DNA of 61,350 bases, the filler included. It is 7 parts of 7 records of this genome, joined end to end, with 100 filler letters (N's around TTAATTAATTAA, not from the genome) between each part and the next. Parts side by side here need not be neighbours in the genome. Positions count along the whole stretch, not along the records: positions 6,239 to 13,055 come from SRR31147125_1323; 6 more parts are not named here. One strand, 5' to 3'. Each line of letters begins with the position of its first letter. The stretch's first letter is position 1. Below the pieces are notes generated by a model. The model was not told where the DNA came from, ran no database searches, and was given only the letters and a program-made list of their open reading frames with translations. A program made the translations under genes and the position numbers. Positions 2,384-36,022 of the stretch are shown here, piece after piece.

Positions 2384-5300
2384 ATGAAAAATTTATTTTT
2401 TTCGATGATTTCTGGAAAAAGTAAAATCTGGAAATCTAAGCTTTGCATGATTATGAGAGCAACAATAATTGTATTATTCATATGTATTAGTCAGACTTTT
2501 GCAGCTAACACATATTCTCAAAGTACTCGCCTGGATCTTGATATGTCGAATGCTACAATCAAAAGCATTTTGTACGCTATAGAAGATCAAACAGAATTCT
2601 ATTTCATATTTGAAGCCAACAAAGTAGATGTAAACAAGAAAGTTTCTATTAAAGCTGAGAATAAATTGGTGACAGATATTCTTGATGAATTATTTCAAAC
2701 ATCAGGAATAACTTATAAGATAAACAATCGCATGATTGCTTTATCGTCATCAAAGTCAAAACAAAAGGGTATCCAACAACAAAAAACAATAAAAGGGAGA
2801 GTCTCCGATATTAATGAGCAACCGCTCCCAGGAGTAACAGTTGTTGTAAAAGGTACTACACATGGAACGATAACAGATTCGGATGGTGAGTTTACATTAG
2901 CTAACGTATCCGATGAATCGATTCTGTTATTTTCTTTCATCGGAATGAAAACACAGGAAATCCTTGTTGGAGTGAGTGCTGATTTTCAGATTACAATGGA
3001 AGAAGAAACCTTTGGGGTGAAAGAGGTAATTGTTACTGCTCTGGGTTTTAAGCGCGAACAAAAGGCTCTTGGTTATGCAGTGCAAAATGTAGATGGGGAA
3101 TCTTTATCAACAGTGAAAGGGATTGATGTTGGAACTTCGCTAACCGGGAAAGTTGCAGGACTTTTAGTGAAAAATACGACTGAATTTGCAAAAGAACCTG
3201 TAATTGAAATACGTGGTGAAAATCCACTTTTAGTAATTGATGGTGTTCCCTATGGCAATATGTCCTTAAGAGATATACCTTCAGACGATATAGAAAACAT
3301 TAGTGTATTAAAAGGCGCAACAGCCTCGGCACTTTATGGTTATCGCGGAGAAAGTGGTGCCATTATGATAACGACTAAGAAAAGTAGTAGAAACAAGGGA
3401 TTAACAGTTTCGGTAAATAGTGGTACCATGTTCACAGCGGGTTACGTTGCAATACCAGAAACACAATCAACTTACGGAAGAAAGGTTTCTGCTGCCACAA
3501 ACATTTACAATAAAGCCGGGCAGGGTTCTTGGGGACCACCAATGGAAGGGCAAGAGGTTATTCAGTGGGATCCTATTTCAAAATCATATCAACCGATGCC
3601 TTTTTCACCAATCGGGAAAGATAATTTTCAAAACTTTGTTGAACAAGGCTATATCTTAAATAACAACATTAGTGTTGTACAGCAAGGGAAAAATGGAAGC
3701 ATACGCTCTTCAGCAACATGGGTAAGAAATAAAGGTCAATACCCCAACTCTAAGTTTGATAAAATTACCTACTCCTTGGGTGGCGATATGAAATTAAACA
3801 AGTTTACACTTTCGTCATCAATTACCTACAACAAACAAACATCACCAAATGTAGGTTTTAATGGCTATACCGGGTACGACCCTATGTATAATATACTAAT
3901 TTGGGCATCTCCCGATTATGATATCAGGCAATATAAAGATTACTGGTTAATACCAAATGAATCTCAAAATAGCAGTTATGCATCAACCAACAACAACCCC
4001 TATTTCGACAGATACGAACGATTACATAGTTTAAACAGAGATATTTTCAATGGCTCACTTTCTGCCAGTTACGAACTTACACCATGGCTAAAAGCTACAT
4101 TTCGTTCAGGTTTTGATTCATACAGCGATCGACAGGATGTTAGAATCTCTAAAGGATCGTTTACCGGAGGTGGTAGCTCAACTGTAATTAAAAATGGGAA
4201 GCAAGTCTGGGGAGAATCCAAAAAAGGTTCTTTCAATTACGGACTTGGTCGTGGATATAGTATAAACAATGATTTCATTCTGTCTGGAAACAAGTCGGTT
4301 GGCGATTTTACCATTGATGCCTTAGCTGGGGGAACAGTATATTATACTCAAGACGAAGGAATAGAGGCCAGAACATACAAAGGTCTTTCAATTCCAGGAT
4401 ACTATTCATTAAAATCTTCGGTTGAACAGATTTGGGTAAATTCCAGAATATATAAACGACAAGTAAATAGTTTATTCGGACGAATGTCTCTTTCTTGGAA
4501 AAACTTGATATTTGTAGAAGGTACAGTGCGTAACGACTGGAGTTCGACTTTATCTGAATCAACTCGTTCATACCTCTATCCTTCAATTGCATCAAGTTTT
4601 ATTATTTCCGAAATACTTCCTAAAATGGACTGGCTTTCGTTATGGAAAATACGTGGCTCATGGACATCATCAAAAAGACCAGCAGGAGTCTATGCTATTA
4701 ATTCGGTATATACAATTAACACAAATGCATGGAACAATATGACATCAGCGACCAACCCAAGCACAATTAGGGGAACTGATGTAATGCCTGAATCTTCATC
4801 TACTTTTGAAATAGGAACAGTTGTAAATGTATATAAAAACAGAGCCTCTGTAGATGTTGCATATTATAATAAAAGGCTGTATGATTTCCTTAAATCAACA
4901 AGCATTAGCCCTGCATCAGGGTATTCTTCAAACTACATTAATATCGATGAAGAAATTACTCGAAGAGGGCTTGAGCTTACGGCTAAAGGAACACCTATAA
5001 AAACCAACGACTGGCAATGGGATCTTGCAATAAACTGGACAAAATATGCCCGGTATTACACCCAGTTAGATACTGTTTTCTCAAAAGACCAACCCTGGGT
5101 AAAAGTTGACGAAAGAGCCGACCATTATTTAATCAAAAATTTCCTTAAAGATCCGAATGGCAATATCATCCACACTGCTGGTAAACCGGTATATTCATCT
5201 TATTATTCACTGGCTGGATATAGTGATCCGGATTGGATTTGGGGATTAAGTTCATCGCTCAGGTACAACGAATTCACATTGAATATTTCAGTTGATGGAC

Positions 5301-5817
5301 GAGTTGGTGGATTGGCACAATCCTATACCGAAATGTATATGTGGAATTCGGGCAACCATCCTGATTCGAACACTGAAGAACGCTATTTAGATGCCACGCA
5401 GCCAGGAACTAAAAATTATTTATCTGAAGGAGTCCAGGTTATTTCAGGAACAGTTGCATATGATACATATGGCAACATTACCAGCGATACGCGAGAATTC
5501 GCTCCAAACGATGTGCCGATAACATACGAAAGCTACATTAAAAGAATACACAAAGGTACTGCATGGGGAGGTACTCCTTCTCCATATGATCTGTATTCCA
5601 CTACCTTCTTTAAAGTTAGAGAACTCTCCCTTACTTATGATCTACCTAAAAGTATTTGCTCAAAATTTTTCGCAAAAAGCGGTTCAGTATCAGCAGTTGG
5701 GCAAAATGTCTTTTCTGGGCAAAAGATTTTAAGTATTCCGACCCAGATGGTGGTACTGAAAACTTTGCCGACCCATCTCAACGCTATATTGGTTTCAACT
5801 TGAAAGTGAATTTCTAA
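2384..5817 (+). CDS. susC: SusC/RagA TonB-dependent transporter with N-terminal STN signalling domain; 1-nt frameshift near the 3' end
   Basis: STN, CarboxypepD-like (PLPGVTVVVKGT), plug (PLLVIDGVP; DIENISVLKGATASALYG..G.IMITTK). Adding one T at 5711-5714 gives the typical end FWAKDFKYSDPDGG...RYIGFNLKVNF* with TAA at 5815-5817. Confidence 0.95.
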
Positions 5818-6138: not shown

Positions 6139-6238
6139 NNNNNNNNNNNNNNNNNNNNNNNNNNNNNNNNNNNNNNNNNNNNTTAATTAATTAANNNNNN
6201 NNNNNNNNNNNNNNNNNNNNNNNNNNNNNNNNNNNNNN
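6139..6238. other. Artificial contig spacer (N44-TTAATTAATTAA-N44)
   Basis: Same 100-nt spacer appears six times; the core has stops in all six frames. Confidence 0.99.
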
Positions 6239-7759
6239 TTTTGAAACATAACTAAGATGCGTTGATAAATCTTTATCAAGTTGTTTAGCATGTTGACGTT
6301 CAATTTTAGCTTTTTCTTCTAATTTTGCTCGTTTTGCTTCGTCGCGGATACGTTTTTTGTTTTCTTTAACAAGTTGTTTATTGAGTTGATCAATTTGTTT
6401 CATTAATCTTTTTTCTAAACGAATAGATTCATTAAAATCAACAGCTTTTGTTTCACGAATAATTTTAGCGATTTTCACTTTTTCTTTAACACTTTTAATT
6501 TTATCTTCTGTTGACTCTTGAACAAGTGATTGGAAAATAAAATCATCATTGTTTCTTTGATCTTCTAAATCAAAGTATGATTGATAGAGTGCATTTGATA
6601 TTTTAATGGTATCTCTTAGCGCTTTTTTTAATGCAACTTCATACGTTGATGAATCTTCTTGATGTTTTTTTATTGATTCATCAAATACTTTTTTGTTTTG
6701 ATCTAAAAAGTACTCATTTATCAGATTGTTTTCCATATCAATTTTAGTACCTGGTGTAACTAAAGACTCTAAATGTTTCTTAATCACTTTGGGTGATTTT
6801 TTTCGATATGTTCTATCATCTAAATACTGATAATGATCTTCTAAATCTTTTTGATTGCCATAAATCGCAGTAAATGATTGAAGTGCAAGTTGATAAATAT
6901 TTTTCATATAAGCATGATCAAATGATAAATTCTTTTCAGTAACTTCTGTATCAAAGTCAAGCGTATGATATTTATCTAAGTATAACCATAAAGTATAACA
7001 ATTTTTATAATCAATATTCTTTAATAAAATGGATGTTTGCATAATCGGTGCTTTTACCGGTTTTGCATTTTTTAAATTTTGCATAAATTCCGTTTTATTT
7101 AGATTGTTTATTTGTTTTAACAAATATTCAATTTTTTTAAGCATCACATTATTTTTTTGATTAATTGATTCATCATTAACATCTTCAGTAATTTTCAAAT
7201 TTAAATCAAGTTCAACTTTTGAATCTTCGATTTGATATGATGATTTCATATTAAAATGTTTTTTATTATAGGATTCAATATTGTTCTTAATCAAGCGATA
7301 TCTTCGATTAATAAAATCAAATAAACGATCGATTAATGTTTTAATAAAGCGATTTTCATAGATTGCATAATCAATTTCTGCATTTGTTACAAGTATACCT
7401 TTTGGAATCACTTGATTGCCACGCATTTCTTTGATTAAATGTGTATTTGCAGCTAAGTGTCTAACCGAATCACTATTAACTCTTTTTGCTTTTTCTATGG
7501 CTGTAACTTCTTGTTCATAACGAAGTCCAGACTTTGGATCATTTGCAATTTTATAAACACTTGGAAAAAATGATTCAATCGTTCCAATCCATTCTTCATG
7601 GAAAGTTTTAATTTCAGTAATACTTTTTTGATATAATTCATTTTCACCATCAAGTAATGCTTGATAAAAGTAATTAGGGAAATCTTGGTCTAATTCAATA
7701 TCATAATAAGCATCATTTAATGCACGATGAAATTTTCTTAAATCAGTAAGTTTTTTCAT
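6239..7759 (-). CDS. DUF2357 (McrC N-terminal-like) protein with long C-terminal coiled coil, 3'-truncated
   Basis: YENRFIKTLI and SILLKNIDYKNCYTLWLYL motifs; E/K-rich helical tail; starts 9 nt after the McrB-like ATPase. Confidence 0.75.
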
Positions 7760-7768
7760 TTTTCACCT

Positions 7769-9316
7769 TTAAAATTGCTTTTTAATTTCCGTTAGATAAG
7801 CTTGACATTCTGCAAATCCATTTTTACCAAATAATCGATCTAGCAATGCAGATAAATCAGTAATTTCATTTTGTAAGAACGGAAGATTTAATCCTTCAAA
7901 TTTTCTAAATATTTTTCTAGCAACCATATAATCAAGTGCTTCAGTTTCAGAACCACCACATGCAACATATACAGGCACAAATGCTCTAATTTGTTTCATA
8001 ATACGATTACCAAATGTTACTTTAAAGTTTTCAGTAATAAACTTATCAAGTCTTTCAAGATTTTTTAATGCTTTGAGTGAAATCGGATGATCTTTTGTTG
8101 CTGTTCTAAACAATTCTTCTAAGTAGTCATTTGAAATTGTTACACCATCAGTATCTGGAGCATCAATATACTCAGATTTCGTGTTAATGACAATAGGTGT
8201 TGCACGATCATAGACTTTATCGGTAATTGTAAATGTTGAATCATCTTTATTCGCAGTACCAACAAACCATACATTTTGTGGTAATAACAATTTACCTTTT
8301 ACAATATGTTCTGGATCACCAGGCTGTGTATCTGGAACAACATCAATTAGCCATCTGTCTTTATCAGGCATTTCTAATAACGAAAGAAATTCTGCAAAAT
8401 AATATTCGACACGTGCTAAGTTCATTTCATCTAAAACGACAAAATTAGGATCTGTTCGATACGTCGTTTCATAAATTGATTCTAAAAACTCTGTCTCATT
8501 AAATTTCTTTGTAAACTCATTTAAGTAACCCATCATCTCTGCACGATCACGCCATGAAGGTTGAACTGCAATAATGTGTGAATCATGTCCAAAGAATTTA
8601 CCCATTGCATAAGGTAGTGATGTTTTACCGGTACCTGAGATACCTTCTAAAATCATTGTTTTTGATGAAGCCATACCAGCAAAAAATGCTGAGATAATTT
8701 TTCTGTTATAAAACAAACCAAGTCTTGAAGCTGAGAAGTTAATAAATCTAGTGACTATTTCATTAAGATTTAGCATATCTTCTTCACGCATAAATATTTG
8801 AGTCACTCTATTTTCATACTCACGATCTACACGTTTAAGTTTAACAAATCTAGATGGTCCAAGATCTTTATCTTCATTTTTCTCATCTTCTGAATCATGC
8901 TCTAATTGACCAGCGCCTTGAACACCACCTACACCTAAGTTTGAAACTTTTAATGCAAGTATTTTATTTCGTTCATCAACGAGTTCAACTGTTTTTTGAT
9001 TAAGAAATGAAACTTCTTCTAATAATTCATCCTTTTCAATTTCTCTAGCAATAAATCTTACATATTTACTAAGCCATTGATAAAGTTTTAAAACCAAGAA
9101 TATAATAAGCGCGACGTTAATCACTAATATGATAAAACCGATGATCCAATCAATCACCGAAAATTGTTCTGATGCAATTGCGAAATTACTCAAATATTGT
9201 GATACATCAGTGATGAAAAATTGTACAATTGCTTCAAAAATATTTCTGAAGAATTCGCCAATATTCATAAATAGTTCTCTGAGTAACTCAATATAGAATC
9301 TTGCAAATTCTACCAT
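7769..9316 (-). CDS. McrB-like AAA+ NTPase with N-terminal membrane segments and coiled coil
   Basis: Walker A GISGTGKT, Walker B VVLDEMNLARVEYYFAEFLS, signature GTANKDD, VYDRA, FGNR; hydrophobic N-terminus (WIIGFIILVINVALIIFLVL). Confidence 0.88.
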   Translation of the reverse strand: MVEFARFYIELLRELFMNIGEFFRNIFEAIVQFFITDVSQYLSNFAIASEQFSVIDWIIGFIILVINVALIIFLVLKLYQWLSKYVRFIAREIEKDELLEEVSFLNQKTVELVDERNKILALKVSNLGVGGVQGAGQLEHDSEDEKNEDKDLGPSRFVKLKRVDREYENRVTQIFMREEDMLNLNEIVTRFINFSASRLGLFYNRKIISAFFAGMASSKTMILEGISGTGKTSLPYAMGKFFGHDSHIIAVQPSWRDRAEMMGYLNEFTKKFNETEFLESIYETTYRTDPNFVVLDEMNLARVEYYFAEFLSLLEMPDKDRWLIDVVPDTQPGDPEHIVKGKLLLPQNVWFVGTANKDDSTFTITDKVYDRATPIVINTKSEYIDAPDTDGVTISNDYLEELFRTATKDHPISLKALKNLERLDKFITENFKVTFGNRIMKQIRAFVPVYVACGGSETEALDYMVARKIFRKFEGLNLPFLQNEITDLSALLDRLFGKNGFAECQAYLTEIKKQF

Positions 9317-9340
9317 ATATTGCTCCTTCTAACGTTAAAC

Positions 9341-10051
9341 CTACTTATTTTTTTCTTTTTCTAATTCTGCAAGTATTTCCTTGCGCATTCTTTCTTTTTC
9401 TGCTTCTAAGTCTTTCATTGCATCTTCTTTTTCTTGTGCATATTGTGTCGCTATTTTTTCTTTGTTTGCACGCATGATAGTTCTTGTTAATATGACACCT
9501 TCAACAATGAGTAAGATGATGACAGGAATAATAATAAATATTGCAAACCCTGCAGATGTTTGAAGATAGTCAAGTGCACTACCAAATCCTGACACTTTAT
9601 GTTCTGTATATACTGATATGACATCTTCGATATTTACTGGTTGATCGGGTTCAGTATTATTATTTTCTGCAACATAATTATAATCAGCTTGTGTGATCAA
9701 ATATCCTTCAGATTTATTTATTTCGACGATTCTATGGGTATTAAATGCATAGATTGATAAATCAAAATATGTTACAATATCTCCTACTTCAAGTTCATCT
9801 CTAGAGTCTTCATCTAACATCTTAACAAAAAGCATATCACCTTTTTCAAATGAATCCTCTAAATCACCATACATCGAATTAGACTGAACGGATAATATAC
9901 CTGTACCAAAGATATTCGCAATATTATCATCTCTTTTTACTTTCATATTCGCAATAGAGAATACTAATAATAAAACGATAACTGTGTAAAATAAGACATT
10001 AAGCACGATTTTTGATATTTTCAATGATAAAGATTGTTCTGAATTTTCCAT
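9341..10051 (-). CDS. sipW: Signal peptidase I, SipW/ER-type (S26B)
   Basis: N-terminal TM, VQSNSM (catalytic Ser), GDMLFV, GDIVTY, THRIVEI (catalytic His), C-terminal TM. Confidence 0.88.
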   Translation of the reverse strand: MENSEQSLSLKISKIVLNVLFYTVIVLLLVFSIANMKVKRDDNIANIFGTGILSVQSNSMYGDLEDSFEKGDMLFVKMLDEDSRDELEVGDIVTYFDLSIYAFNTHRIVEINKSEGYLITQADYNYVAENNNTEPDQPVNIEDVISVYTEHKVSGFGSALDYLQTSAGFAIFIIIPVIILLIVEGVILTRTIMRANKEKIATQYAQEKEDAMKDLEAEKERMRKEILAELEKEKNK

Positions 10052-10071
10052 GCTTTCTCCTTTATGATAAC

Positions 10072-10134
10072 AATAAAACTAGTCATAATCCATAAGGATT
10101 GGTAAGTATGCAAATTGCATACTTACCAGACTAG
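10072..10134 (-). terminator. Strong stem-loop (terminator or mRNA-stabilising) after the 310-aa subunit gene
   Basis: TGGTAAGTATGCAA-A-TTGCATACTTACCA (10100-10128) inside an outer CTAGTC/GACTAG pair, followed by TTTTATT on the minus strand. Confidence 0.7.
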
Positions 10135-10146
10135 AATGTTAGTTAA

Positions 10147-11079
10147 TTATACTGTAACACCTTGGAATGTAAATGAAGTTGAAACGAATTGTGAAAGAAT
10201 TGAGTTATATGCGTTAGCATCCCAACCTTCTAACCAAATTCTAACAGTTACTTGACCATAGTAAGTTGCACCGAAATCACTCGCACTACCACTAACGTCT
10301 ACTAATGAAATAACAGGTTGTCCACCAGCTAAGTCAGTTATAGTTGATAGTGTAGTTACTGAAGATGCTCCAACAGGTAATTCATCATTTTTAGCATAGT
10401 AGTAATTCATTGCACCAGCATCACCTTCACCAGCAGCAACACCATCTGATAAATCTCCACCAGTACCTAATACAACGTTTGATCCACCAGCAGGTTTTTC
10501 ATATGCAACAGTGAAATCACCATAAGTTAAATCACTTACCATAGCAACACGCATAGCATCTGATGCATCAACGTTAATTGAAGCACCTGCGACTACTGCA
10601 GTACCATTTGCAGGTGTAAAATCAGCATCAACTGTCCATGTATTACCTGCAGCTGTTAATGAAACTGTTGTCCAATTTATTTGATTTGCACTATTTGATC
10701 TGAAATTAAGTGGTAATTCAATAAATCCTGTAGTTACAGTTGTCATTGAAGCAGAACCTAATGTTGAAAATGATTCACCATCCGCTGTAGTCACATGATT
10801 AAAGATTTGAGTATTACCATAAACATCTGCTAAGTATCCTTCAACATCATCAGTAGTAAGTGTAGTTACCCATTCTGCATCTTCTGGATTTGCAAATGTT
10901 GTACCATGTGCACCTAGAGAGATTTCAATCCCGCTATCACCGATAATTTGTGCTTCAAAAGCTTGAACTGTTGATGTATTTGTCAACGTAAACCACGCAA
11001 ATGTTGTAGAACCAAGTGCGAACACTGTTAATACAACCGCAATAATTGATAAAAATAATTTTCTTGTCATTTTACTCAT
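10147..11079 (-). CDS. Secreted protein with SipW-cognate signal peptide (TasA/camelysin-like fibre subunit, probable major subunit)
   Basis: ...ALGSTTFAWFT signal motif; Thr/Gly/Ala-rich beta-type sequence; C-terminal VRIWLEGWD; immediately upstream of sipW. Confidence 0.75.
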   Translation of the reverse strand: MSKMTRKLFLSIIAVVLTVFALGSTTFAWFTLTNTSTVQAFEAQIIGDSGIEISLGAHGTTFANPEDAEWVTTLTTDDVEGYLADVYGNTQIFNHVTTADGESFSTLGSASMTTVTTGFIELPLNFRSNSANQINWTTVSLTAAGNTWTVDADFTPANGTAVVAGASINVDASDAMRVAMVSDLTYGDFTVAYEKPAGGSNVVLGTGGDLSDGVAAGEGDAGAMNYYYAKNDELPVGASSVTTLSTITDLAGGQPVISLVDVSGSASDFGATYYGQVTVRIWLEGWDANAYNSILSQFVSTSFTFQGVTV

Positions 11080-11146
11080 TTTTTCTAGTCTCCTTTAATT
11101 TAATTTATAAAAATATGAGTTATATAATTAACTAACTTTTGTTAGA

Positions 11147-12121
11147 TTAATCCAAATTTGTTTCAGCTTCTTTTAATAGTTTAAATTGAAGTTGAATTTT
11201 TAAACGATCACCACTGATGGCATCAAATGCATCAGCATCCCAGCCTTCAATCCACAATGATATCTTTATTTTGCCTTGATAGATTGCATCACCATCATCA
11301 TTAATTTGACCTGTATCCTGTAATATTGCTACTTTTGATTGATTGTCTAGTGCTTGATAGGGGTTTCTAGGATCATATGTTGATAGTTCATATAATACTT
11401 CTTGTTCTTCTTCAGGTAAATTAATGTAATTTCTTGTTTTTTCAGTGAAATAACTATAATTACCGTATATTTTCCCATACCCTCTTGTTGGATCAGCTGA
11501 TGGATCAAATATCCAACTTATTAAATCACTTTCATTTCTTTGATCAAGTTCATTTAACGTATCTTGTAATTCCACAAATGAAACTCTTACAGCATCACTT
11601 GCATAGTATATACGTTCATCACCTTTTTCGATCACTTGACCGAGTTCATCATATATAAAACTTTGATCACTACGCCAATTGACACCTCTCGATACAACAT
11701 ATGTGCCACTAGCTGATGTGTCAAATGCTATTGATTGACTTACATTATTAACCACGTATACTGATTGATAATTTTCTGTTGTTTGAAACCATACATCAAA
11801 TTGCAAATAATCTCTTGCAGGATTAACATCATCTTCATCTCTTAGACCACCTGCTTTAAATGTTTGTCCATCTAAGCTAGTGACTTCATTAAGTGTAATA
11901 TCTGCAAACAATGTTTGTAATTGTTCTGGTGTTAAGTTGTTAGAAAAGTTTTGTCCATCTAATGAGATGAGTAATTCTTCTCCACTACTTGCTGATAAAG
12001 ATAGACCTTCTATATTATTAACAGTTGATAAACTGATCCAAGCAAATGTCACAGTACCAAATGTGATAACCAATAAAAATAAACTTATTAAAACTAAATG
12101 AAACTTTTTAATCACACCCAT
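11147..12121 (-). CDS. Secreted protein with SipW-cognate signal peptide, paralogue of 10147..11079
   Basis: FGTVTFAWIS signal motif; shares ISL-G, VT(S/T)xDG, ASDA(V/M)RV and WIEGWD blocks with the neighbour. Confidence 0.75.
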   Translation of the reverse strand: MGVIKKFHLVLISLFLLVITFGTVTFAWISLSTVNNIEGLSLSASSGEELLISLDGQNFSNNLTPEQLQTLFADITLNEVTSLDGQTFKAGGLRDEDDVNPARDYLQFDVWFQTTENYQSVYVVNNVSQSIAFDTSASGTYVVSRGVNWRSDQSFIYDELGQVIEKGDERIYYASDAVRVSFVELQDTLNELDQRNESDLISWIFDPSADPTRGYGKIYGNYSYFTEKTRNYINLPEEEQEVLYELSTYDPRNPYQALDNQSKVAILQDTGQINDDGDAIYQGKIKISLWIEGWDADAFDAISGDRLKIQLQFKLLKEAETNLD

Positions 12122-12133
12122 GATATCCCTCCA

Positions 12134-12838
12134 TTAGATAGAGAAACTCATTTGCATTTTAATCGATCCACCAGCAATCGCATCTGTTGTGTCAGGATCT
12201 TCTCCTTCTATCCATAAGAGTACTGAAAACTTAACAGTTTCTTGAGGGACAAAACGATTAATGGTTTGTCTTGTGATGGTGTAATCATCTAGAAATGATT
12301 CAGCCTCAGGTAGTTCAACTAAGTATTCTGGGAAATTACCTTCTTCATCTGCTTCATCAGGTCTTTGATAAATAGTTTCTTCATCATCAACAATAATCAT
12401 AAACCGAATGGCTTTATCTAAATCTTTGGTAATTTCAGTAATTCTTACACTATAAGTAACATCTACGGTTTCTAATCCATTATTTTGAAGATAGAATGTA
12501 TATGCCATATAATCAATATCAGGATCTACAAAATTGCCATCAGTTGCTTTGACTTGTTCAATTTGCAACCAATTATATGTAATATCTTGTGCATTTTCTA
12601 CTGGATTTGTCATTAATCTTGAAGTTGTCGTTTCAAAATCTTTAGTTTCAGATAAGACAATACCACGATTATAAGCATCATAATCAACACTCATCACAAA
12701 ATTACCAGTTTCTTGTCCATAAAATGTCACTACACCAAATGTGATGCTTAATAAGAATGTAATAATAAGTCCAATGGTATAAATTCTTTTTCTTCTTGCA
12801 TATTTAGTTGCAGCCATGACAGTCGATAATTTATTCAT
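12134..12838 (-). CDS. Membrane-anchored distant paralogue of the same putative fibre family
   Basis: Basic N-terminus plus TM; YTFYLQNNG, KAIRFMI and LLWIEGEDPD..DAIAGG motifs; RBS AGAGGTG. Confidence 0.65.
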   Translation of the reverse strand: MNKLSTVMAATKYARRKRIYTIGLIITFLLSITFGVVTFYGQETGNFVMSVDYDAYNRGIVLSETKDFETTTSRLMTNPVENAQDITYNWLQIEQVKATDGNFVDPDIDYMAYTFYLQNNGLETVDVTYSVRITEITKDLDKAIRFMIIVDDEETIYQRPDEADEEGNFPEYLVELPEAESFLDDYTITRQTINRFVPQETVKFSVLLWIEGEDPDTTDAIAGGSIKMQMSFSI

Positions 12839-12850
12839 TTCTACACCTCT

Positions 12851-12894
12851 AAAATAAAAACCAGTATCAAATAATTAAATTAAATGATAACTGG
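12851..12894 (-). terminator. Intrinsic terminator (expression platform of the proximal riboswitch)
   Basis: Minus strand CCAGTTATCA...TGATACTGG followed by TTTTTATTTT; the 5' arm overlaps the aptamer 3' end. Confidence 0.85.
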
Positions 12895-12958
12895 CTGCCA
12901 TGTGTAGGCCCTATAGCTTTGCGTCCTATTGTTTCCAATAGTTTGCCTTTTACATTGA
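12885..12958 (-). promoter_or_regulatory. Cyclic di-GMP-I (GEMM) riboswitch aptamer, proximal copy
   Basis: Minus strand AAAAGGCAAACTATTG-GAAA-CAATAGGACGCAAAGCTATAGGGCCTA-CACA-TGGCAGCCAG matches the GEMM consensus (GGCAAAC..GAAA..GACGCAAAGC..GGCCTA..GGYAGC). Confidence 0.93.
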
Positions 12959-12968
12959 TATAATTTTT

Positions 12969-13014
12969 AAAAATAAAAACCAGACATCATTAAAATCAAT
13001 TTAATGACAACTGG
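12969..13014 (-). terminator. Intrinsic terminator (expression platform of the distal riboswitch)
   Basis: Minus strand CCAG-TTG-TCATTAAA...TTTAATGA-TGT-CTGG followed by TTTTTATTTTT. Confidence 0.82.
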
Positions 13015-13055
13015 CTACCTTTTATATTTAGGCCCTATAGCTTTGCGTCCTATCG
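13005..13055 (-). promoter_or_regulatory. Cyclic di-GMP-I riboswitch aptamer, distal copy (5' half cut by contig end)
   Basis: Minus strand CGATAGGACGCAAAGCTATAGGGCCTAAATATAAAAGGTAGCCAG; 25 nt identical to the proximal copy (13029-13053 vs 12905-12929). Confidence 0.88.
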
Positions 13056-13155
13056 NNNNNNNNNNNNNNNNNNNNNNNNNNNNNNNNNNNNNNNNNNNNT
13101 TAATTAATTAANNNNNNNNNNNNNNNNNNNNNNNNNNNNNNNNNNNNNNNNNNNN
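13056..13155. other. Artificial contig spacer
   Basis: N44-TTAATTAATTAA-N44. Confidence 0.99.
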
Positions 13156-13208
13156 TTCAATAGAATGAATATGAAGAAAACATTATACTTTAAAGCAGAA
13201 TTTTTATT

Positions 13209-13604
13209 ATGAAAAAGATTAAGTTACTAACAGTTGCTCTAATAATAGTATTAATTTTGTCATACTCTAGTGTTGCGTTTGCAGGATCATACTATTTTAA
13301 TTTTTCAAATGGATATACCAAAAACAATGCGGCAATAGTAGTTAATACATTTGAAGATGTTAATAAGTATTGTCTTGAATGGTTTCCTGGCACATCGTCT
13401 ACATATCATCGTAGCTATGCTGGAAGCATATGTCAAAATGGATATCCGAATGGTAATTTATTAGGATCTGACGATATAAACTCAGGTGGTCGATTTATAT
13501 GTTGGAATCAAACAAGTTTTGGGCAAGGTTGGAGTGCTACATATAGATTTGATAATGACAACTATGCAGGGGCGTTGTTAAAGATGAAAGGTATAACTGG
13601 TTAG
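13209..13604 (+). CDS. Small Sec-secreted protein (131 aa), possibly a bacteriocin-like or signalling precursor
   Basis: Signal peptide ending VAFA; mature part rich in G/N/S/aromatics with 3 Cys; first gene of the cassette. Confidence 0.65.
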   Translation: MKKIKLLTVALIIVLILSYSSVAFAGSYYFNFSNGYTKNNAAIVVNTFEDVNKYCLEWFPGTSSTYHRSYAGSICQNGYPNGNLLGSDDINSGGRFICWNQTSFGQGWSATYRFDNDNYAGALLKMKGITG

Positions 13605-13618
13605 ACGTTTTTAACAAA

Positions 13619-13645
13619 TGTGCGGCTAAGAAATTTAGCCGTACA
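13619..13645 (+). terminator. Stem-loop after the small secreted protein gene
   Basis: TGTGCGGCTAA-GAAAT-TTAGCCGTACA; no strong U tract. Confidence 0.55.
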
Positions 13646-13672
13646 AAATCTTATCATGAAAGTTGAGAGGTT

Positions 13673-15082
13673 ATGAAACTTATAATAATTATTTTTGTTG
13701 TTCTATTAACATCTGCTTGTCAGCCGACACCAGATAGGAACATCGTACAGAATAAAAACGAGCTTGAAGATTTAGTTACAGTAAATAGAACAAATCAAGC
13801 AGAAGTGATTTCTGAATCAGCAAACAATTCATGGATTACGGATGAAAATATCCTCTATGAAGAAAGTAGAGATATTGAAAGCGAATATCAAACATACACA
13901 GTTACTTGTACAATAGATTCGAAGATTCCTGAAGTAAGTTTTGGTGTGCCAGTAATCTTAATAGAGCCAAGTGATTTTAGCTTGGATTTCGCATCTACAG
14001 CAGCTAATTATCTATTAGAGGATGACATTTACCAAAATAAAAGAACTAAAGATGATATTATATTGGAGAAAATCCATTTTGAAAAATCAATAAGCTCTTT
14101 AGACCATAATAATACTACAGTCCAAAACTTAATTGAAGGTTTTGAAGAATGGAATGAAACTATGCTAGCATCAGCTCCAACTGTTAATAGTATAGCTGAA
14201 ATTAAATACTTGAATGAGTATAACAATGGAGATCAGGTTGCGCTAAAGTCTTATCTTCCGAATAGCCGTATTGGAGAAATGCTAATAACTAATAATGGTA
14301 ATCTAACTTTTATGAGATATCACTCCAACGATATGGATAACTTTTTTGAAGTTGGAAAAAAACTTGATACCGAAAGCGAAAAACTTAATGGCTGCGAATT
14401 ATCATACAATGAAGCATTAGATATCTCGGATAGACTTGTTGACCAGGTTTATTCAAAAGTGTGTGCAAATGGTATGACTTTACAACAAGTTAAGATATTT
14501 AATAATAAAAATAGATATCAGCTTATGGCGGGGATGTACAGCGATAATAATGAGAATTCAAATCAACAAGGATATGTTTTTATATATAAACCGTCATATG
14601 ATACACAAATACCAGCTTTAGTAATTGAAGGAGCAACTACATTTGAACCAGAAGGTAGTAGGGTTTATAGAGAACCTTATGCTCAAGAATGTGCCGTTGT
14701 CTTGGTAGATGATTACGGAATTGTTATGTCTTTTTATTATAGTCCTTCTAAGATTGTAAATATAGTAAATGATAATGTTGAAATTATTTCATTTAATGAA
14801 GCATTAGATTTATTTAAAGATAAAGTATTTTACCAATACTTATGGAGCTCCGGTTATGATATAAATATCAACATTAAAAACATAGAATTTGGACTAATAA
14901 GGATTCCTGTTGAGGATAATTTAAACCAATATATGATGATTCCTGCATACAATTTTATAGGTGATATTATTCATGAAAACATCGATTATCCAGAGGTTGA
15001 ATCAAACAAGAGCATTATGTTAATCAATGCATTAGATGGCAGTGTTGTCATGGATATAAATGATGAAATAGTAATTAAATAG
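13673..15082 (+). CDS. DUF6034-like lipoprotein
   Basis: Lipobox TSAC followed by QPTP..IVQNK; C-terminal MIPAYNFIG...LINALDGSVV. Confidence 0.75.
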   Translation: MKLIIIIFVVLLTSACQPTPDRNIVQNKNELEDLVTVNRTNQAEVISESANNSWITDENILYEESRDIESEYQTYTVTCTIDSKIPEVSFGVPVILIEPSDFSLDFASTAANYLLEDDIYQNKRTKDDIILEKIHFEKSISSLDHNNTTVQNLIEGFEEWNETMLASAPTVNSIAEIKYLNEYNNGDQVALKSYLPNSRIGEMLITNNGNLTFMRYHSNDMDNFFEVGKKLDTESEKLNGCELSYNEALDISDRLVDQVYSKVCANGMTLQQVKIFNNKNRYQLMAGMYSDNNENSNQQGYVFIYKPSYDTQIPALVIEGATTFEPEGSRVYREPYAQECAVVLVDDYGIVMSFYYSPSKIVNIVNDNVEIISFNEALDLFKDKVFYQYLWSSGYDININIKNIEFGLIRIPVEDNLNQYMMIPAYNFIGDIIHENIDYPEVESNKSIMLINALDGSVVMDINDEIVIK

Positions 15083-15102
15083 AAGTATGGAGGAAGTAAA
15101 CT

Positions 15103-15805
15103 ATGATTAATATAAAATTCAATTTAAAAACCATAATAATCATGTGTGCAACCTTTATGATTTTTATTGGTTTGTCAGAATATTTTTCAGACTATTTGAG
15201 ATTTACGTATGATGTTAGCCCCAGTTTTTTTGAATTGATAGTAATGCAACTTAATGAAAAGCACATTGTCCTTTTCCTTCTCACTTTCTTGCTGCTTTTC
15301 TATTCTCTAACTATTTTCAATACAGGCGAAATCATAGGCAGCAAGTATGTTTACTATTGCATTCTTTTTACTAATTATATTTAGTTTTATCTTTTTTCCT
15401 CAGACAAATAGCAGTATTGATATCACAAGAAAACACTTTTATAGTATCTATTATAATATGCCTTTTATATTCTTTGTATTCTTTGTTGTACATACATCTT
15501 TATGCGCAATAGTATATTCGCTTTTTGGTTCTACAATAATGATTTTGACCAAAGACAAACTTTGTTCGTTATATATTCCTCTGATATATTACTCCTGCTT
15601 TATGCATTTTATATGTTTCTTAGGATCTTTAAGGGAAATAGTATTTTGGGTAACTCCAATATATACTTTTGATTTTCCAGAAGCAAGTTTGCCATTGTCA
15701 AAATATATTATAGAAATATCCTTTGTTTTTGTTCTATCAATAATTCTTTTGTTGATTTATTGGTTAGTTAATAAGTATAAAGACAATAGGGTAAATGTTA
15801 CCTGA
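15103..15805 (+). pseudogene. ABC-2-type permease-like membrane protein, split into two frames (15103..15384 and 15347..15805)
   Basis: Two overlapping hydrophobic ORFs; RBS GGAGG only before the first; frame break near 15340-15350. Confidence 0.55.
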
Positions 15806-15829
15806 TTGGTTAAACGTTTGATATGGAAT

Positions 15830-16129
15830 ATGAAATTAGATATTAAAAGAAGTATAAAGAATTCAAATTTTGGTATATCAGTTTCTATAATGATTATTGC
15901 AACTATATTAGGAGCTGGTTTTAAATTAGTAATACCAGAATATGCGCAAAATGGTATCGTGATGTATTATCACTGTAAAGTTGTACTCAGAGGAATTCAA
16001 TCAGATATTGTTTGACTAATAACTCCTATTGTATGTGCTTTGCCATATACATCTACATTCTTAGATGAGTATACGAGCGGATATATAAAAGTATATTTAA
16101 TGCGTTGTGATAAAGAAGAGTATATCTGA
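15830..16129 (+). pseudogene. Truncated ABC-2-type permease with an in-frame TGA
   Basis: MKLDIKRSI...SDIV*LITPIVCALPYTSTFLDEYTSGYIKVYLMRCDKEEYI*; the LPY..F.DE..SGYIK....R motif continues after the stop at 16013-16015. Confidence 0.65.
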
Positions 16130-16433
16130 TGAAAGGGGTGTATTACCATTCTTAGATATATTAGTGAAGGTGTGCATCTACTTTCTTACAGGTGGATTTT
16201 GGGCAATGGGTAGGTGGGGGTGTAATTATGCTTATGATGATGATAGGTATGATGTCGGTAATATATTTTAGAGTCACAGAAAAACAAAGTGTTGATAAGT
16301 ACAACGGTACAATTAAGATTGATTATAAAAATGTTTTTGAAGAGAGGAATTTATGTATAATCCGATATAAATCGACATTTTAATGTAAGCTATTCCCTCT
16401 ACAGTACTAATTATTTCCTTGAATCAATTAATC

Positions 16434-17744
16434 TCATATCTTTTGATTGTTGCCGCTATTTTTATTTTTCTTTAGCAATATAAAAATAACAATTGTTGTT
16501 ATAATCACGAGTATACAAAGTGCAATTAGTACAATTATCAGCCAGAAAATGTTTTTGGGCATCGTCATATTTTTATCTAAAGTGTTATTTGTATCTATAC
16601 TATTTTCTATTGCATCGACTGTTTCAACAGCGCCATCTGTATCAGTAGTTTCAACTGCTGATGGAGATGGTGAAGGTGTTGCTTGTTGGGTTGTTGATGG
16701 TATTGGCGAAGGCGTAACTTCTTCGGCTACAGTAATATGAATTGTGTTGGTTTGCTTATATACTTGAGTATCTCCAATAATTCCAGCTACGACAAAGCTG
16801 ACATCACATGATTCGTCAATATGCTGGGTAATTGGCAAGTGAACGATTGAACCAGTAGGGATGCCCTCGTAATTGCCTAATGACATAGCATCCATATCCG
16901 TTAAGCCGATTGAATGTAATGCATCGCCTGTGTTATGAACCTCTACATCAAAATTGACGTCCTCGCCGGCATTTACAGTTGTTTTGTCAGCGGAAAGAAA
17001 AATATTAAACTCGCAGTTTGGAGGTATTGGGTTAACAGTTATGGTCAATGGAGATGATGAAACTTGGTTAACCAATGTTCCAACACCATCTTGCGTATAC
17101 AGATAAATTGTATATATAAAAGTTGTTGTTTCGTGTAGTGTATGCTCTAAAATAGCTTGTGAAGGTCCGCCGGGAGACATGTCTTCAGATGATGAAATTA
17201 AATTACCGTTTTGATCGATAATCGATGTACGCACGTTTTCGTTCCCTGAGTACATTACACTCATAGAGATGTCTATACTCTCACCTTCTTGTATTACAGG
17301 CGTAGTGCAACCAACGCTGATAGATACCGTGTAATCTGGTGGCTCAAAAGTAACGCCGTTGATAAAGCCCCAGCCATCGACTCCTGTTGAACTGCTTTGG
17401 CTCATACCGACTTGAGCTTGAAATGAAGAACCAATATCACTTGGATCAATGTTAACATCAAATACGATCCTTTGTGGATGATTTGGCGGGATGTTAACAT
17501 CCTTAATGATGCTCTGCTGACTAGCTTTCCCTGGAGCAAAATCGATAGAAACGCGATTAATATGTTCGGTTGAGGATGTATTTCTTACAAGCAGATATAC
17601 TCTTGCAGAACCAGAAGAATCTCCAACTGCTGAAAGGTCTACTTCCCAATCGCCAAAGACAGGAACATTTTCAGCTAAAGCTGAGCAAGGCATAAATAGC
17701 ACAACAAAGAGAAATAAAATAGAGAGGAACCATAATTTTTTCAT
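16434..17744 (-). CDS. Cell-surface protein: signal peptide, about three Ig-like beta domains, P/T/S linker, C-terminal TM anchor
   Basis: Start reassigned to ATG 17744 (MKKLWFL..ALA) with GGAGG RBS; LSADKTTVNAGEDVNFDVEVHNTG is CARDB/DUF11-like; TPSP linker; TM plus KKNK. Confidence 0.75.
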   Translation of the reverse strand: MKKLWFLSILFLFVVLFMPCSALAENVPVFGDWEVDLSAVGDSSGSARVYLLVRNTSSTEHINRVSIDFAPGKASQQSIIKDVNIPPNHPQRIVFDVNIDPSDIGSSFQAQVGMSQSSSTGVDGWGFINGVTFEPPDYTVSISVGCTTPVIQEGESIDISMSVMYSGNENVRTSIIDQNGNLISSSEDMSPGGPSQAILEHTLHETTTFIYTIYLYTQDGVGTLVNQVSSSPLTITVNPIPPNCEFNIFLSADKTTVNAGEDVNFDVEVHNTGDALHSIGLTDMDAMSLGNYEGIPTGSIVHLPITQHIDESCDVSFVVAGIIGDTQVYKQTNTIHITVAEEVTPSPIPSTTQQATPSPSPSAVETTDTDGAVETVDAIENSIDTNNTLDKNMTMPKNIFWLIIVLIALCILVIITTIVIFILLKKNKNSGNNQKI

Positions 17745-18575
17745 AATAACCTCCAAAATAGGTTTGGAAAACAAAAAAATACACTTATATTTATAGTATA
17801 TTTTACTCATTAAATATTTACAACTAAATATTTTAAATTGGAATAGTGGGAACGCCTCAAAACGATTATTTAACAGATATAAGTTGATTTTACACCAGGA
17901 AATTAGTGTGCTTTGACGGACTTGATAATAGGCATATGAAGGAGAAAAACGTTTATTGAAAGTGAGCAAAGCCTTGTCGGTATCTTAATGTGCGTTATAT
18001 GATTTGAATGAAATAAGAGAGCGTGTCTTGATACTATGCGAATGACTTGTTGCTCTTTTTTGTCCTTCTAGGTTCACTTCTTTTATGGTGATTTGTAAAA
18101 GTTTTATTTTTTAATACATAATAACTTATTGTTTATTTGCGCACCTTTGCAATTAAAACAATAGAGTCATTTTCATCAAACTCTGTGTATTTAATAGTTT
18201 TAATAAGATCAAAATCATTACCTAAAATACTATTAAGCCTTTTATCGTTAATATAATTGCTATACCTTAATATGATAAATGCTCTTTTAATTTTATTTCT
18301 GATTGTTTTCATAGTTCTCCCCTAATTTAAGCATCATCATATTGTGTTGTTTATCAAGCTATACAAAACTACCATCTCCTACTGTTCACGTCAATTGCTA
18401 CAAAAGCCAATATTAAAATCAGCACAAATACAATCGGTAAAATTGACACTATTTTTCATTTTACCTCTTCTGATCAATTATACGTATTTAAAAGGATTAT
18501 GAATATTGTTGTAGCATAAGGTTCTTAACTATAAAAGCACATTCAGCAATCATAGAAGTTGCTTTTTAATCTTAT

Positions 18576-19973
18576 TTATGGCAAGTAAACACTTGCTAAT
18601 GAAATTACTTTCTTATCTTCGATTTTCACCATATATAGAGGCATATTTGAATGACTTTTGTAATAGTCTGAATTTTCTAGTTCATTTGCTTTTATCACAT
18701 AATATATGGTGAATCCATCTTCTGTAATGAAGCATGTTGCATCATTACTAAACTCATAAAAAATATATGCTTCACTATGATTTTGTATATTTAGAAATTC
18801 ATCATTTTGCGCTTGTCCATCATAATTATATATTACATCATCTACGTACAAACCGCCTTCTGTTGGTTTTATAGAAGCTGAAATATACCCATCTAAATTA
18901 AGACTATCGACATATCCATAATTATCAATGATTTTTGGGGTAATCTCATTTAAAGACTCGATGCTAATATATGGGTCTTCACTTGTAATCGCATTTAAAT
19001 AATGATTTCTGATTGTAGGAAAATTATAAACATCATAAATAAGCTCATAATACTTAATAATATTTGTTTTTAAAGGCTTTTCACATGGAGTGAATATCAC
19101 TTCTTCATCCTCAATTGATGGAACAAATATTTCGGAGAAATAATTACTCATCGTATCGCCATTGTTGTATGCATTATAGGCAAGGAATAGGGTACCATTA
19201 TATAATATGAAACGATAATTTGATATCGTTCTAAAGGGCAAATGAACAGATAATTCTTGAGATGATTGTTTATCGTAGCACATGATACTGTAATATCTAG
19301 ATTGGTTTCCATGTACAATATTATAATATATTTCATCAACTTTATCTTGATTCAGATCCGATATAAATATCTGATTAACCGAAAATGACCCGCTCGCAGA
19401 TTCCTCTTTTAGCAGTTTCTTATACTCGCTATAATCAGGTTCAGTGTCTTTAACTTCTACAGAAAAAATATTTTCTGCAATTGATTTTTCAGCAACTGTT
19501 ATCTCATCTGGTAAGTTTATGCCTTGAGTGATAAGCAAAATCTCTCGTTCAACTTCTAGCTCAATTTCTTCGTATGTTAATTTGCCATCAATAAGTTTTG
19601 GGCTATACACATGTGGATCATAAAGTGATGAAAGAAGATGATCCATAGATATAATATAAAGTCTGTCGTTATACTCGACGAATTTATAGTTCTTTTTTCC
19701 CCTGTCTTCGATATACGAATACGTATCAGTTGTAATGTCATAGCACTCAATAAACTCGTGGGCAATTCCTGACCCTGCCGATGTGTTATAGCAGATTTCG
19801 TTTGTACCATCATCGTTTAAATCCGTTTCAAAAACCTCCATAACAGCGCAAGGTAAGTCTCCAGGATATTCTCTATAATCTATTATAGTATCCTCTGTTT
19901 GGACATGAGGTTTTGTACATGAAGCGAATAACAATAGGATTATGATTGCTATTATCAAAAAAAATTTTTTCAT
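18576..19973 (-). CDS. Lipoprotein with an internal duplicated domain (D-L-N-x-D-x-x-x-E-I motif)
   Basis: Lipobox FASC; two repeats, DLNDDGTNEICYN..IECYD..NYKFVEYNDRLY and DLNQDKVDEIYYN..IMCYD..NYRFILYNGTLF. Confidence 0.7.
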   Translation of the reverse strand: MKKFFLIIAIIILLLFASCTKPHVQTEDTIIDYREYPGDLPCAVMEVFETDLNDDGTNEICYNTSAGSGIAHEFIECYDITTDTYSYIEDRGKKNYKFVEYNDRLYIISMDHLLSSLYDPHVYSPKLIDGKLTYEEIELEVEREILLITQGINLPDEITVAEKSIAENIFSVEVKDTEPDYSEYKKLLKEESASGSFSVNQIFISDLNQDKVDEIYYNIVHGNQSRYYSIMCYDKQSSQELSVHLPFRTISNYRFILYNGTLFLAYNAYNNGDTMSNYFSEIFVPSIEDEEVIFTPCEKPLKTNIIKYYELIYDVYNFPTIRNHYLNAITSEDPYISIESLNEITPKIIDNYGYVDSLNLDGYISASIKPTEGGLYVDDVIYNYDGQAQNDEFLNIQNHSEAYIFYEFSNDATCFITEDGFTIYYVIKANELENSDYYKSHSNMPLYMVKIEDKKVISLASVYLP

Positions 19974-20276
19974 ATTATATTTCTCCAATCATCTTTAGTA
20001 TAAACTATCTAATATTAATGGATAATTTATACGTAAAAAAGTTGCAGTAAATTCATATATATAAGGTGTTTAGTTTGTTGGTGTTGCAAATTGTAGATCT
20101 CTTGTATTATCTATATAATTCCTAAGCAGCCCATTAACCGCAGCAAGCAAGCTGTTTGGTATCGTTACTTTTTGATTTTTTCACGCCGAAAAATTGAGGT
20201 TTCGCGACAAACTACTGACTTTTAAAACAAAATATCGTACAATCCGACTAGAAAAACAAATTCTAGGAGGTTTTGT

Positions 20277-21928: not shown

Positions 21929-22028
21929 NNNNNNNNNNNNNNNNNNNNNNNNNNNNNNNNNNNNNNNNNNNNTTAATTAATTAANNNNNNNNNNNNNNNN
22001 NNNNNNNNNNNNNNNNNNNNNNNNNNNN
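21929..22028. other. Artificial contig spacer
   Basis: N44-TTAATTAATTAA-N44. Confidence 0.99.
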
Positions 22029-35922: not shown

Positions 35923-36022
35923 NNNNNNNNNNNNNNNNNNNNNNNNNNNNNNNNNNNNNNNNNNNNTTAATTAATTAANNNNNNNNNNNNNNNNNNNNNN
36001 NNNNNNNNNNNNNNNNNNNNNN
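35923..36022. other. Artificial contig spacer
   Basis: N44-TTAATTAATTAA-N44. Confidence 0.99.

Follow-up and report, generated by a model that had tools for sequence, protein, structure and literature searches.

A CoCoPALM-type operon of an Acholeplasmataceae-like bacterium, in which a membrane-anchored McrB-family GTPase and a nuclease-less DUF2357 protein may serve SipW-dependent fibre assembly

A stretch of DNA of 61,350 nucleotides (hereafter the window) contains, on one of its contigs, a predicted operon that resembles the gene combination named CoCoPALM, and the McrB-family GTPase and DUF2357 protein encoded by this operon are, on balance, probably a nuclease-free platform that serves a SipW-type signal peptidase and the assembly of a surface fibre. 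In the order of transcription, the operon encodes three related proteins (A, B and C), a SipW-type signal peptidase (D), a membrane-anchored GTPase of the McrB family (E) and a McrC-like DUF2357 protein (F), behind tandem riboswitches for cyclic diguanosine monophosphate (c-di-GMP). An earlier note, made from the letters of this DNA, had described six co-oriented genes with gaps of 12, 67, 95, 24 and 9 nt behind two GEMM riboswitches, and had read them as including SipW, an McrB-like NTPase with a transmembrane (TM) anchor and an apparently nuclease-less DUF2357 partner, under c-di-GMP control and in an Acholeplasma-like host of low G+C content. The gaps are confirmed by the coordinates of the open reading frames (ORFs), and these identifications are borne out by the evidence given below.

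Related loci were collected by scanning genome contigs with the GTPase, which yielded 386 stretches encoding relatives, and the best 80 of the 386 (60-85% identity, each with an L number) were analyzed; the locus counts given below come from this set and are not fully independent, since some loci overlap or share a genome. Locus L078, from strain zrk7, is the closest complete relative of the window operon. Nearly all of the 80 loci carry labels of Acholeplasmataceae, Mariniplasma, Peloplasma, Paracholeplasma, Tenericutes/Mycoplasmatota or Bacillota. As these labels and the relatives of the individual proteins indicate, the host is an Acholeplasmataceae-like, wall-less bacterium and the operon is chromosomal.

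The GTPase gene is the best conserved of the cluster, with 60-85% identity compared with 28-78% for A, B and C. Its product begins with an acidic segment of ~50 aa, followed by a TM segment at ~50-83, a helical or charged linker, and the GTPase domain from residue ~155. Because the segment before the TM span is acidic and basic residues follow it, hydropathy places the GTPase domain in the cytoplasm. A phmmer search of the PDB with this sequence alone gave 0 matches and a narrow profile reached only E 0.04, but a profile of 57 diverse relatives (29-54% identity) found E. coli McrB as its best PDB match (E 1.9e-6), the next match lying at 0.017. Against AAA_5 the protein scores 18.7 bits, below the cutoff of 22. 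Walker A (GISGTGKT) and Walker B (LDE(M/L/I)NLA) are found in 80/80 loci and GTANKDDS in 78/80; N356 and D358 are invariant in 57 distant relatives, the next residue (D359) being D or E, and the Walker A, Walker B and NxD motifs are intact, as judged from these alignments. The TM N-terminus is kept in distant relatives. An exhaustive search of cluster representatives returned 8,250 clusters at E <= 1e-3; among the 150 matches listed, the similarity extends over the TM N-terminus in about ten full-length proteins, and most of the rest match from residue ~150 on and have different N-termini. Relatives on plasmids and phages share the GTPase domain only, at 26-39% identity, which, together with the strong conservation of the gene, points to a cellular machine inherited vertically more than to a mobile defence gene.

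The partner gene is cut by the contig end in the window, so its product was studied mainly through complete orthologues. Protein F matches PF09823 at 46.7 bits (cutoff 23.3) and has no TM segment by hydropathy. The fragment ends at orthologue position 507, and ~110 C-terminal residues of charged helix are missing. Complete orthologues are mostly 607-630 aa long; those of five Paracholeplasma-type loci reach 681-688 aa, and that of L069 reaches 932 aa. An alignment of 44 DUF2357 sequences shows strong conservation to residue ~450 and then a tail rich in Lys and Glu (40% K+E in an orthologue, 70/177 residues). In the AlphaFold 2 model of the L078 orthologue (mean predicted local distance difference test score, pLDDT, 74.8), an alpha/beta N-terminal part and a helical middle are followed by a single predicted helix at 442-617, and a loop at 80-127 that is highly conserved appears disordered in the monomer. 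In two complete orthologues DUF2357 is the only domain that Pfam recognizes, and the 932-aa form gave no match; in particular, PF04411 was not found on three full-length orthologues. The alignment holds no conserved D...(D/E)xK motif, D270 and E275 being followed by N277 and not by K. As a positive control, a relative of the GTPase on a Rhizobium plasmid is followed by a DUF2357 protein in which PDDEXK_7 is detected at 53 bits, and this pair adjoins a cytosine methyltransferase and Vsr. A degenerate PD-(D/E)xK fold was considered for residues 134-305, where a helix, two long strands, an insertion, a strand and a helix succeed each other, and was rejected, the strands being unconserved and the catalytic motif absent. 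Foldseek of the L078 model against the PDB gave nothing at E <= 1e-3, its top matches being noise (actin-capping protein and the like) with no nuclease among them, and a PDB profile search with the DUF2357 alignment returned coiled-coil noise or nothing. NCBIfam and PADLOC have nothing for this protein. All 30 of its nearest named clusters in the Atlas carry DUF2357, and it is on Pfam and the Atlas that the proposed kinship with McrC rests. As far as these tools can see, the absence of a nuclease is real and not an artefact of truncation, and in full-length orthologues a predicted charged helix of ~175 residues replaces the PD-(D/E)xK nuclease.

Protein D scores 60.3 bits against TIGR02228 (cutoff 51.85) and 71 bits against the SipW equivalog NF046067, below its cutoff of 190, and by these profiles it is a SipW-type enzyme and not a SipW equivalog. 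Hydropathy places TM segments at 8-39 and 160-195. Among 56 orthologues, S59, H106 and D123 hardly vary, which indicates that the catalytic residues are intact, and a cytoplasmic tail of ~45 aa is conserved and 47% charged. A complex prediction of full-length SipW with residues 1-135 of the GTPase gave a score of 0.00 (mark 0.34) and, run without controls, is evidence in neither direction.

The same genes recur together in the related loci, in two paralogous types of cluster. A DUF2357 gene is present in 58 loci and the window and missing from 21, one further locus being too short to tell. SipW stands directly before the GTPase in 52/52 DUF2357-bearing and 19/20 DUF2357-less loci (71/72 overall, with L071 as the miss), and the series A-B-C-SipW is complete in 34/35 and 17/18, respectively (51/53 overall; L061 is the miss among the DUF2357-bearing loci). 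At least in this lineage, as represented by the best 80 of the 386 stretches, it is unusual for the GTPase/DUF2357 pair to lack neighbouring sipW and subunit genes, so that the neighbourhood test proposed in the earlier note comes out in its favour and does not refute it; the order of the genes and, in the DUF2357-bearing type, control by riboswitches are conserved in the family. In a quick IQ-TREE tree, the two types form the two sides of one branch (support 87 in the Shimodaira-Hasegawa-like approximate likelihood ratio test, SH-aLRT), and where contigs are long enough they lie 15-21 kb apart in the same genome. In L023, the DUF2357-less cluster (6469-20734) is found ~10-20 kb upstream of the DUF2357-bearing one, continues with three more SipW-type substrates and closes with an ORF of 2,362 aa; further examples are L034, L039, L049, L051, L053, L071 and L076. 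After the DUF2357 gene, an exported paralogue was detected in 22/48 loci and a second SipW in 41/48. In L078 (13425-16284) and L017 (13442-16413), this region encodes a further exported paralogue and another SipW, whose charged tail is of the same kind, followed by a riboswitch (14832-14906 in L078, of the c-di-GMP-I class) and more SipW-type substrates, the downstream paralogue of L017 scoring 17.2 bits against PF12389, below the cutoff of 22.5. The cluster also turns up in metagenome-assembled genomes (MAGs) with other labels, Bacteroidales for L070 and L080 and Omnitrophota for L073; the GTPase of L073 is identical to that of the 'Tenericutes' MAG L072, and these labels probably reflect bin contamination rather than gene transfer.

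A gene combination of this kind was named CoCoPALM by Bell et al. (eLife 2024; PMC11090510), who deferred it to 'a separate, forthcoming publication'. The available passages of that paper describe an NxD GTPase with a fused FtsB-like TM/coiled-coil domain, an associated gene of the signal peptidase family, coiled coils in both the McrB and the McrC homologue, and DUF2357 in the McrC homologue. The NxD of this branch is described there as usually followed by E or a second D, and the clade is placed within the diversity of Type IV restriction (PMC11090510). The supplementary material gives, for one Bacillota example, HHpred E values of 1.2 for FtsB and 8.1e-8 for SipA, and the preprint, as far as available, carries the same CoCoPALM wording. 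The window operon shares the NxD-type GTPase with a TM and helical N-terminus, the adjoining signal peptidase gene, and the nuclease-less DUF2357 partner, which, in the orthologue model, has a long coiled-coil-like helix. As to the FtsB-like domain, the TM segment at ~50-83 is followed by a charged helical stretch, and Pfam gave no FtsB match at E <= 10. The peptidase, called SipA-like in the available text of the paper, is SipW-type here. On these shared defining features, to which the clade placement is owed, the operon is best classed as a CoCoPALM-type member. The 'candidate new system' of the earlier note was thus overstated, the combination having already been named in 2024; the accompanying remark that no characterized system was known is literally true, as CoCoPALM is uncharacterized at the bench, but the combination had been noted before. 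The available passages and table of that paper mention neither A, B and C genes, c-di-GMP riboswitches, GGDEF-EAL neighbours and Acholeplasmataceae nor a DUF2357-less paralogue, so that, as far as they show, c-di-GMP control, the subunit genes, the distribution in Acholeplasmataceae, the GGDEF-EAL neighbours and the paralogous cluster lacking both DUF2357 gene and riboswitch are new here. Apart from Bell et al. and the preprint, searches of the literature yielded neither another paper on this combination of genes nor a later CoCoPALM paper, nor any paper on DUF2357 with SipW; among the matches listed for TasA, camelysin and SipW, Acholeplasma was not mentioned.

Control by c-di-GMP is suggested by the leader of the operon. 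The complete aptamer exceeds the RF01051 gathering score of 35 and reaches 90.1 bits with R1, a family-specific covariance model built from 18 riboswitch copies of the related lineage. The upstream copy, matched by Rfam at 13060-13003 with 24.6 bits, stays under the gathering score owing to the loss of its 5' half, and the fragment scores 42.3 bits (E 3e-6) with R1; in L078, two complete tandem c-di-GMP-I copies stand at the orthologous position. The whole leader folds with a z of -3.6. Each aptamer overlaps a terminator-like hairpin, and the 5' arms of the hairpins contain nucleotides that pair within the aptamer in the sequence and fold, an overlap that can be read as an ON switch working by anti-termination. 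CCAG...C(T/C)GG followed by a T-run was found after 106/145 riboswitch copies in related loci, compared with 14/2000 random windows. Upstream of A, at least one riboswitch is present in 34/34 assessable DUF2357-bearing clusters, with one copy in 14, two in 10, three in 9 and four in 1. All 146 riboswitch matches obtained by nhmmer lie on the gene strand, Rfam concurring on 7 loci, and an extra copy is found downstream of the cluster in 42/47 loci. The array in L002 (6047-6484), in which four complete c-di-GMP-I aptamers at ~120-nt spacing precede one operon, is unusually long. Scans for promoters and terminators inside the operon gave results at or below shuffle expectation, and no terminator-like site was found by scanning its intergenic gaps. 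GGDEF-EAL genes occur within 1.5 kb upstream in 19/29 DUF2357-bearing and 10/15 DUF2357-less loci (29/44 assessable loci overall); L078 (2153-6177) and L023 (2088-6148) each have two of them directly upstream of the cluster, their EAL domains scoring 186-210 bits. That Acholeplasma signals through c-di-GMP is already in print: A. laidlawii is reported to have 14 proteins of the GGDEF/EAL kind (PMC2408644).

The three proteins encoded ahead of SipW are paralogues: B and C align over their full length (E 1e-14), the C-terminal block of A resembles B (E 1e-7), and a W(L/I)EG(W/E)D block is common to all three. B and C have a SipW-type T(F/Y)A|W junction after a hydrophobic segment. A pattern search found Ala before the W in 51/52 matched B orthologues (7/59 were unmatched) and in 64/64 matched C orthologues. 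The A orthologues have TFYGQ in place of this junction (the pattern matched 21/56, all with Tyr, and left the other 35 unmatched), and A may therefore stay membrane-anchored as an uncleaved paralogue. PF12389 (Peptidase_M73) gave no match on A, B or C at E <= 0.1. The AlphaFold 2 model of C is beta-rich and confident (pLDDT 91.2; predicted template modelling score, pTM, 0.83), with residues 25-36, around the predicted cleavage site, as its sole low-confidence stretch. Its weak Foldseek matches include the TasA fibre 8aur_A (E 1.3e-2, probability 0.41, template modelling score 0.22-0.27), the Sulfolobus thread 7pnb, FaeG, FimA, EcpA and TLP-1a, and also beta-sandwich domains of glycosidases. 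A PDB profile search with the C alignment returned nothing or coiled-coil noise, and in the Atlas the closest cluster with a name is Peptidase_M73, at just 0.86; kinship of C with TasA, suggested by the model, is a lead and not a result. The C family has 317 relatives at E <= 1e-3. No Pfam domain occurs among the 120 listed, and those among them that carry a name come from Acholeplasmataceae or from MAGs of Mycoplasmatota, Tenericutes or Bacillota, a single record with a protist label being the exception. One EukProt record of the protist Anaeramoba ignava contains a GTPase-like P0012 (77% identity) and a C-like P0389 (58%), as p2 and p4, and presumably represents a bacterial associate; if it is a transcript, co-transcription of C and the GTPase would follow. 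Two residues of C, Glu52 and Asn34 (in the N-terminal strand, as predicted), show almost no variation. An isopeptide triad Asn35/Glu56/Lys74 has been reported in the available text on C. perfringens BsaA (PMC11580942), and Asn34/Glu52 of C recall Asn35/Glu56, although no conserved Lys was seen in C.

Table 1. Features of the operon contig and linkers of the window (positions count along the whole stretch)
Feature	Position	Strand	Basis and remarks
McrC-like DUF2357 protein (F), first 507 codons	6239..7759	-	PF09823; ORF open at contig end
Membrane-anchored McrB-family GTPase (E), NxD clade, 515 aa	7769..9316	-	Profile and motifs
SipW-type (archaeal/ER-type) signal peptidase I (D), 236 aa	9341..10051	-	TIGR02228
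Protein C, 310 aa	10147..11079	-	ORF; N-terminal signal-like segment; TFA|WFTLTN junction; WLEGWDAN block
Protein B, 324 aa	11147..12121	-	ORF; N-terminal signal-like segment; TFA|W junction; WIEGWDAD block
Protein A, 234 aa	12134..12838	-	ORF; TM 18-42 by hydropathy; C-terminal WIEGEDPD block
Ribosome-binding site AGAGGTG	12850-12844	-	Directly after hairpin 2
Terminator-like hairpin 2 with U-run	12851..12894	-	Sequence and minimum free energy fold; overlaps 3' strand of aptamer 2
Aptamer 2, complete c-di-GMP-I (GEMM-I)	12883..12957	-	Rfam RF01051, 67 bits, E 5.7e-11
Terminator-like hairpin 1, CCAG...CTGG with U-run	12969..13014	-	Sequence and minimum free energy fold; 5' arm overlaps 3' strand of aptamer 1
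Aptamer 1 (upstream copy), 3' part of c-di-GMP-I	13003..13055	-	5' half lost at contig end
Linkers N44-TTAATTAATTAA-N44	6139-6238, 13056-13155, 21929-22028, 35923-36022, 41663-41762, 55930-56029		

Compared with canonical McrBC (E. coli McrB/McrC; PDB 6HZ4, 6UT6), the window pair shares the AAA+ GTPase core with Walker A, Walker B and an Asn signature, McrB being the best PDB profile match, and a DUF2357 partner gene immediately downstream of the GTPase. It differs in its NxD signature, as opposed to NxxD, in a TM anchor that replaces the N-terminal DNA-binding domain and belongs to no Pfam domain, in a partner type without the PD-(D/E)xK nuclease, and in being chromosomal, vertically conserved and part of one predicted operon with genes for surface proteins. 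Matrix-fibre operons such as tapA-sipW-tasA of Bacillus subtilis and sipW-bsaA-bsaB-bsaC of Clostridium perfringens provide a second comparison. Like these, the window operon has a dedicated SipW-type peptidase among paralogous secreted proteins with a shared signal junction, one of which may be an anchor or nucleator; unlike them, its subunits have no Peptidase_M73 match, its host is wall-less, its control is by tandem c-di-GMP riboswitches, and it includes GTPase and DUF2357 genes, which are absent from those operons. In the Bacillus cereus group, tandem c-di-GMP-I riboswitches, each with its own expression platform, are found upstream of adhesin genes. The arrangement of several complete c-di-GMP-I aptamers in series before surface-protein genes is alike, whereas the host lineage and the controlled genes are different, and up to four copies are present here (L002).

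A working model can be proposed from these elements. High c-di-GMP would stabilize the aptamers and prevent termination, turning the operon on. Sec would export B and C, SipW would trim them, and they would assemble into a surface fibre; as the host has no cell wall, the uncleaved paralogue A could hold this fibre on the membrane. The GTPase would form a ring that is tethered to the membrane and has its GTPase domain on the cytoplasmic side, and the loop at ~80-127 of the DUF2357 protein could plug into this ring and stimulate its hydrolysis of GTP in the way that McrC acts on McrB. The pair would then be a GTP-driven cytoplasmic platform that organizes, anchors or regulates the site of SipW activity and fibre assembly and does not cut nucleic acid. 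A bolder version, which we hold to be possible but rather doubtful, is that the McrBC motor, minus its nuclease and DNA-binding domain, was converted into a cytoplasmic engine or anchor, fixed in the membrane and driven by GTP, for a SipW-dependent surface fibre of wall-less bacteria, digitally switched on by up to four tandem riboswitches; if true, this would be an unstudied class of pilus machinery with a cytoplasmic NTPase, similar in logic to the type IV pilus ATPases and of unrelated origin.

Several observations weigh against a platform for fibre assembly. A physical link of the GTPase to SipW or to the subunits is hypothetical, and a role of the GTPase as motor, scaffold or means of retraction is pure inference. 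Residues 1-155 of the GTPase match no Pfam family at E <= 10, FtsB/DivIC included; the protein matches the PADLOC defence candidate PDC-M26A at 7e-42, and the wider GTPase family sits in restriction-like contexts. For the partner, neither Foldseek of its model nor the PDB profile search found a McrC structure. None of A, B and C is matched by a family of Pfam, NCBIfam or PADLOC, and with weak fold matches as what remains, the subunits are not demonstrably TasA/TapA/camelysin proteins, the type named in the earlier note; Foldseek of the C model gave nothing in the PDB at E <= 1e-3, and the formation of a fibre by these proteins is putative. That c-di-GMP turns the switch ON is a reading of the sequence. 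Finally, 21 loci keep A-B-C-SipW-GTPase without an adjacent DUF2357 gene, and a riboswitch was found upstream of A in 0/18 assessable clusters of this type, from which it follows that neither a partner in cis nor c-di-GMP control is obligatory for the core.

This last point also bears on a different explanation of the GTPase, as a regulatory switch and not a mechanical device: a tethered, GTP-dependent ring would gate SipW processing or subunit release, with the DUF2357 protein as its activator. Such a role would suit the position of the GTPase gene immediately downstream of sipW (71/72 loci), the conserved charged tail that SipW exposes to the cytoplasm, the retention of the GTPase where no DUF2357 gene stands in cis, and the adjacent GGDEF-EAL genes, GTP being also the substrate for c-di-GMP synthesis. 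However, contact between SipW and the GTPase is hypothetical, and McrB-type rings are known, also from the available text of Bell et al. (PMC11090510), as McrC-stimulated translocases and not as switches; we regard a switch as unlikely. The nature of the subunits can be questioned in the same way, for A, B and C could be monomeric surface or adhesion proteins, or a coat resembling a surface layer, that share a SipW-type signal peptide and do not polymerize into fibres. The missing family matches are in line with this, as are the Foldseek results for C, which hold nothing at E <= 1e-3 and glycosidase beta-sandwich domains among the top matches. Three or more paralogues with a dedicated SipW, as in tapA-sipW-tasA, speak for fibre subunits instead, as do the TasA fibre, the archaeal thread, FaeG, FimA, EcpA and TLP-1a among the weak matches of C, and the C model is disordered only just after the predicted cleavage site, as is reported in the available text for the donor strands of BsaA (PMC11580942), so that this alternative seems improbable. 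That the pair is still a defence or conflict module that happens to have been fixed within the fibre operon, for example an abortive-infection system or a sensor that watches the fibre as a possible phage receptor with its effector elsewhere, would agree with the PADLOC match, with the cytosine methyltransferase, Vsr and nuclease-bearing DUF2357 genes that adjoin the wider NxD McrB family on plasmids, and with the count of the clade within Type IV restriction diversity in the available text (PMC11090510), but is quite improbable in view of a pair with no detectable nuclease or other effector domain, a TM segment in place of the N-terminal target-recognition domain, strict and not patchy synteny of the GTPase at 60-85% identity over 80 loci, apparent co-regulation with surface proteins by c-di-GMP riboswitches, and the finding of no full-length GTPase relative on plasmids or phages.

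If the pair does serve a fibre, as the platform reading proposes, it would clearly exemplify the exaptation of a defence enzyme, McrBC, for cell-surface biology, and would give a first hint of how wall-less bacteria build and hold protein fibres on a bare membrane. The system is compact, conserved and under a signal, c-di-GMP, that can be manipulated, and the DUF2357-less paralogous cluster provides a natural control. The cluster is present in the cultured strains Peloplasma aerotolerans M4Ah, Paracholeplasma vituli 92-19 and zrk7, which makes the question testable.

The window itself is a composite of seven contigs joined by artificial linkers (Table 1), and the operon contig is the whole of contig 2 (6239-13055; 6,817 bp, 30.8% G+C). 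Since linkers bound this contig, the neighbouring sequence in the window has no value as genomic context, and the upstream riboswitch copy and the DUF2357 ORF are both incomplete because the contig ends there; the missing end of the gene cluster was sought on the other six contigs of the window and was not found. Gram-negative markers occur on contig 1, with a SusC-like TonB-dependent receptor (2384-5803), and on contig 4, with SurA (22386-23711) and a YidC with a periplasmic domain (32425-34215), so that, set against the Acholeplasmataceae-type contig 2, the source assembly looks like a mixed bin. Contig 3, an unrelated contig of low G+C content, encodes two DUF6034 proteins (13673-15082 and 20277-21740; 95 and 264 bits), with unannotated ORFs of 470-511 aa between them.

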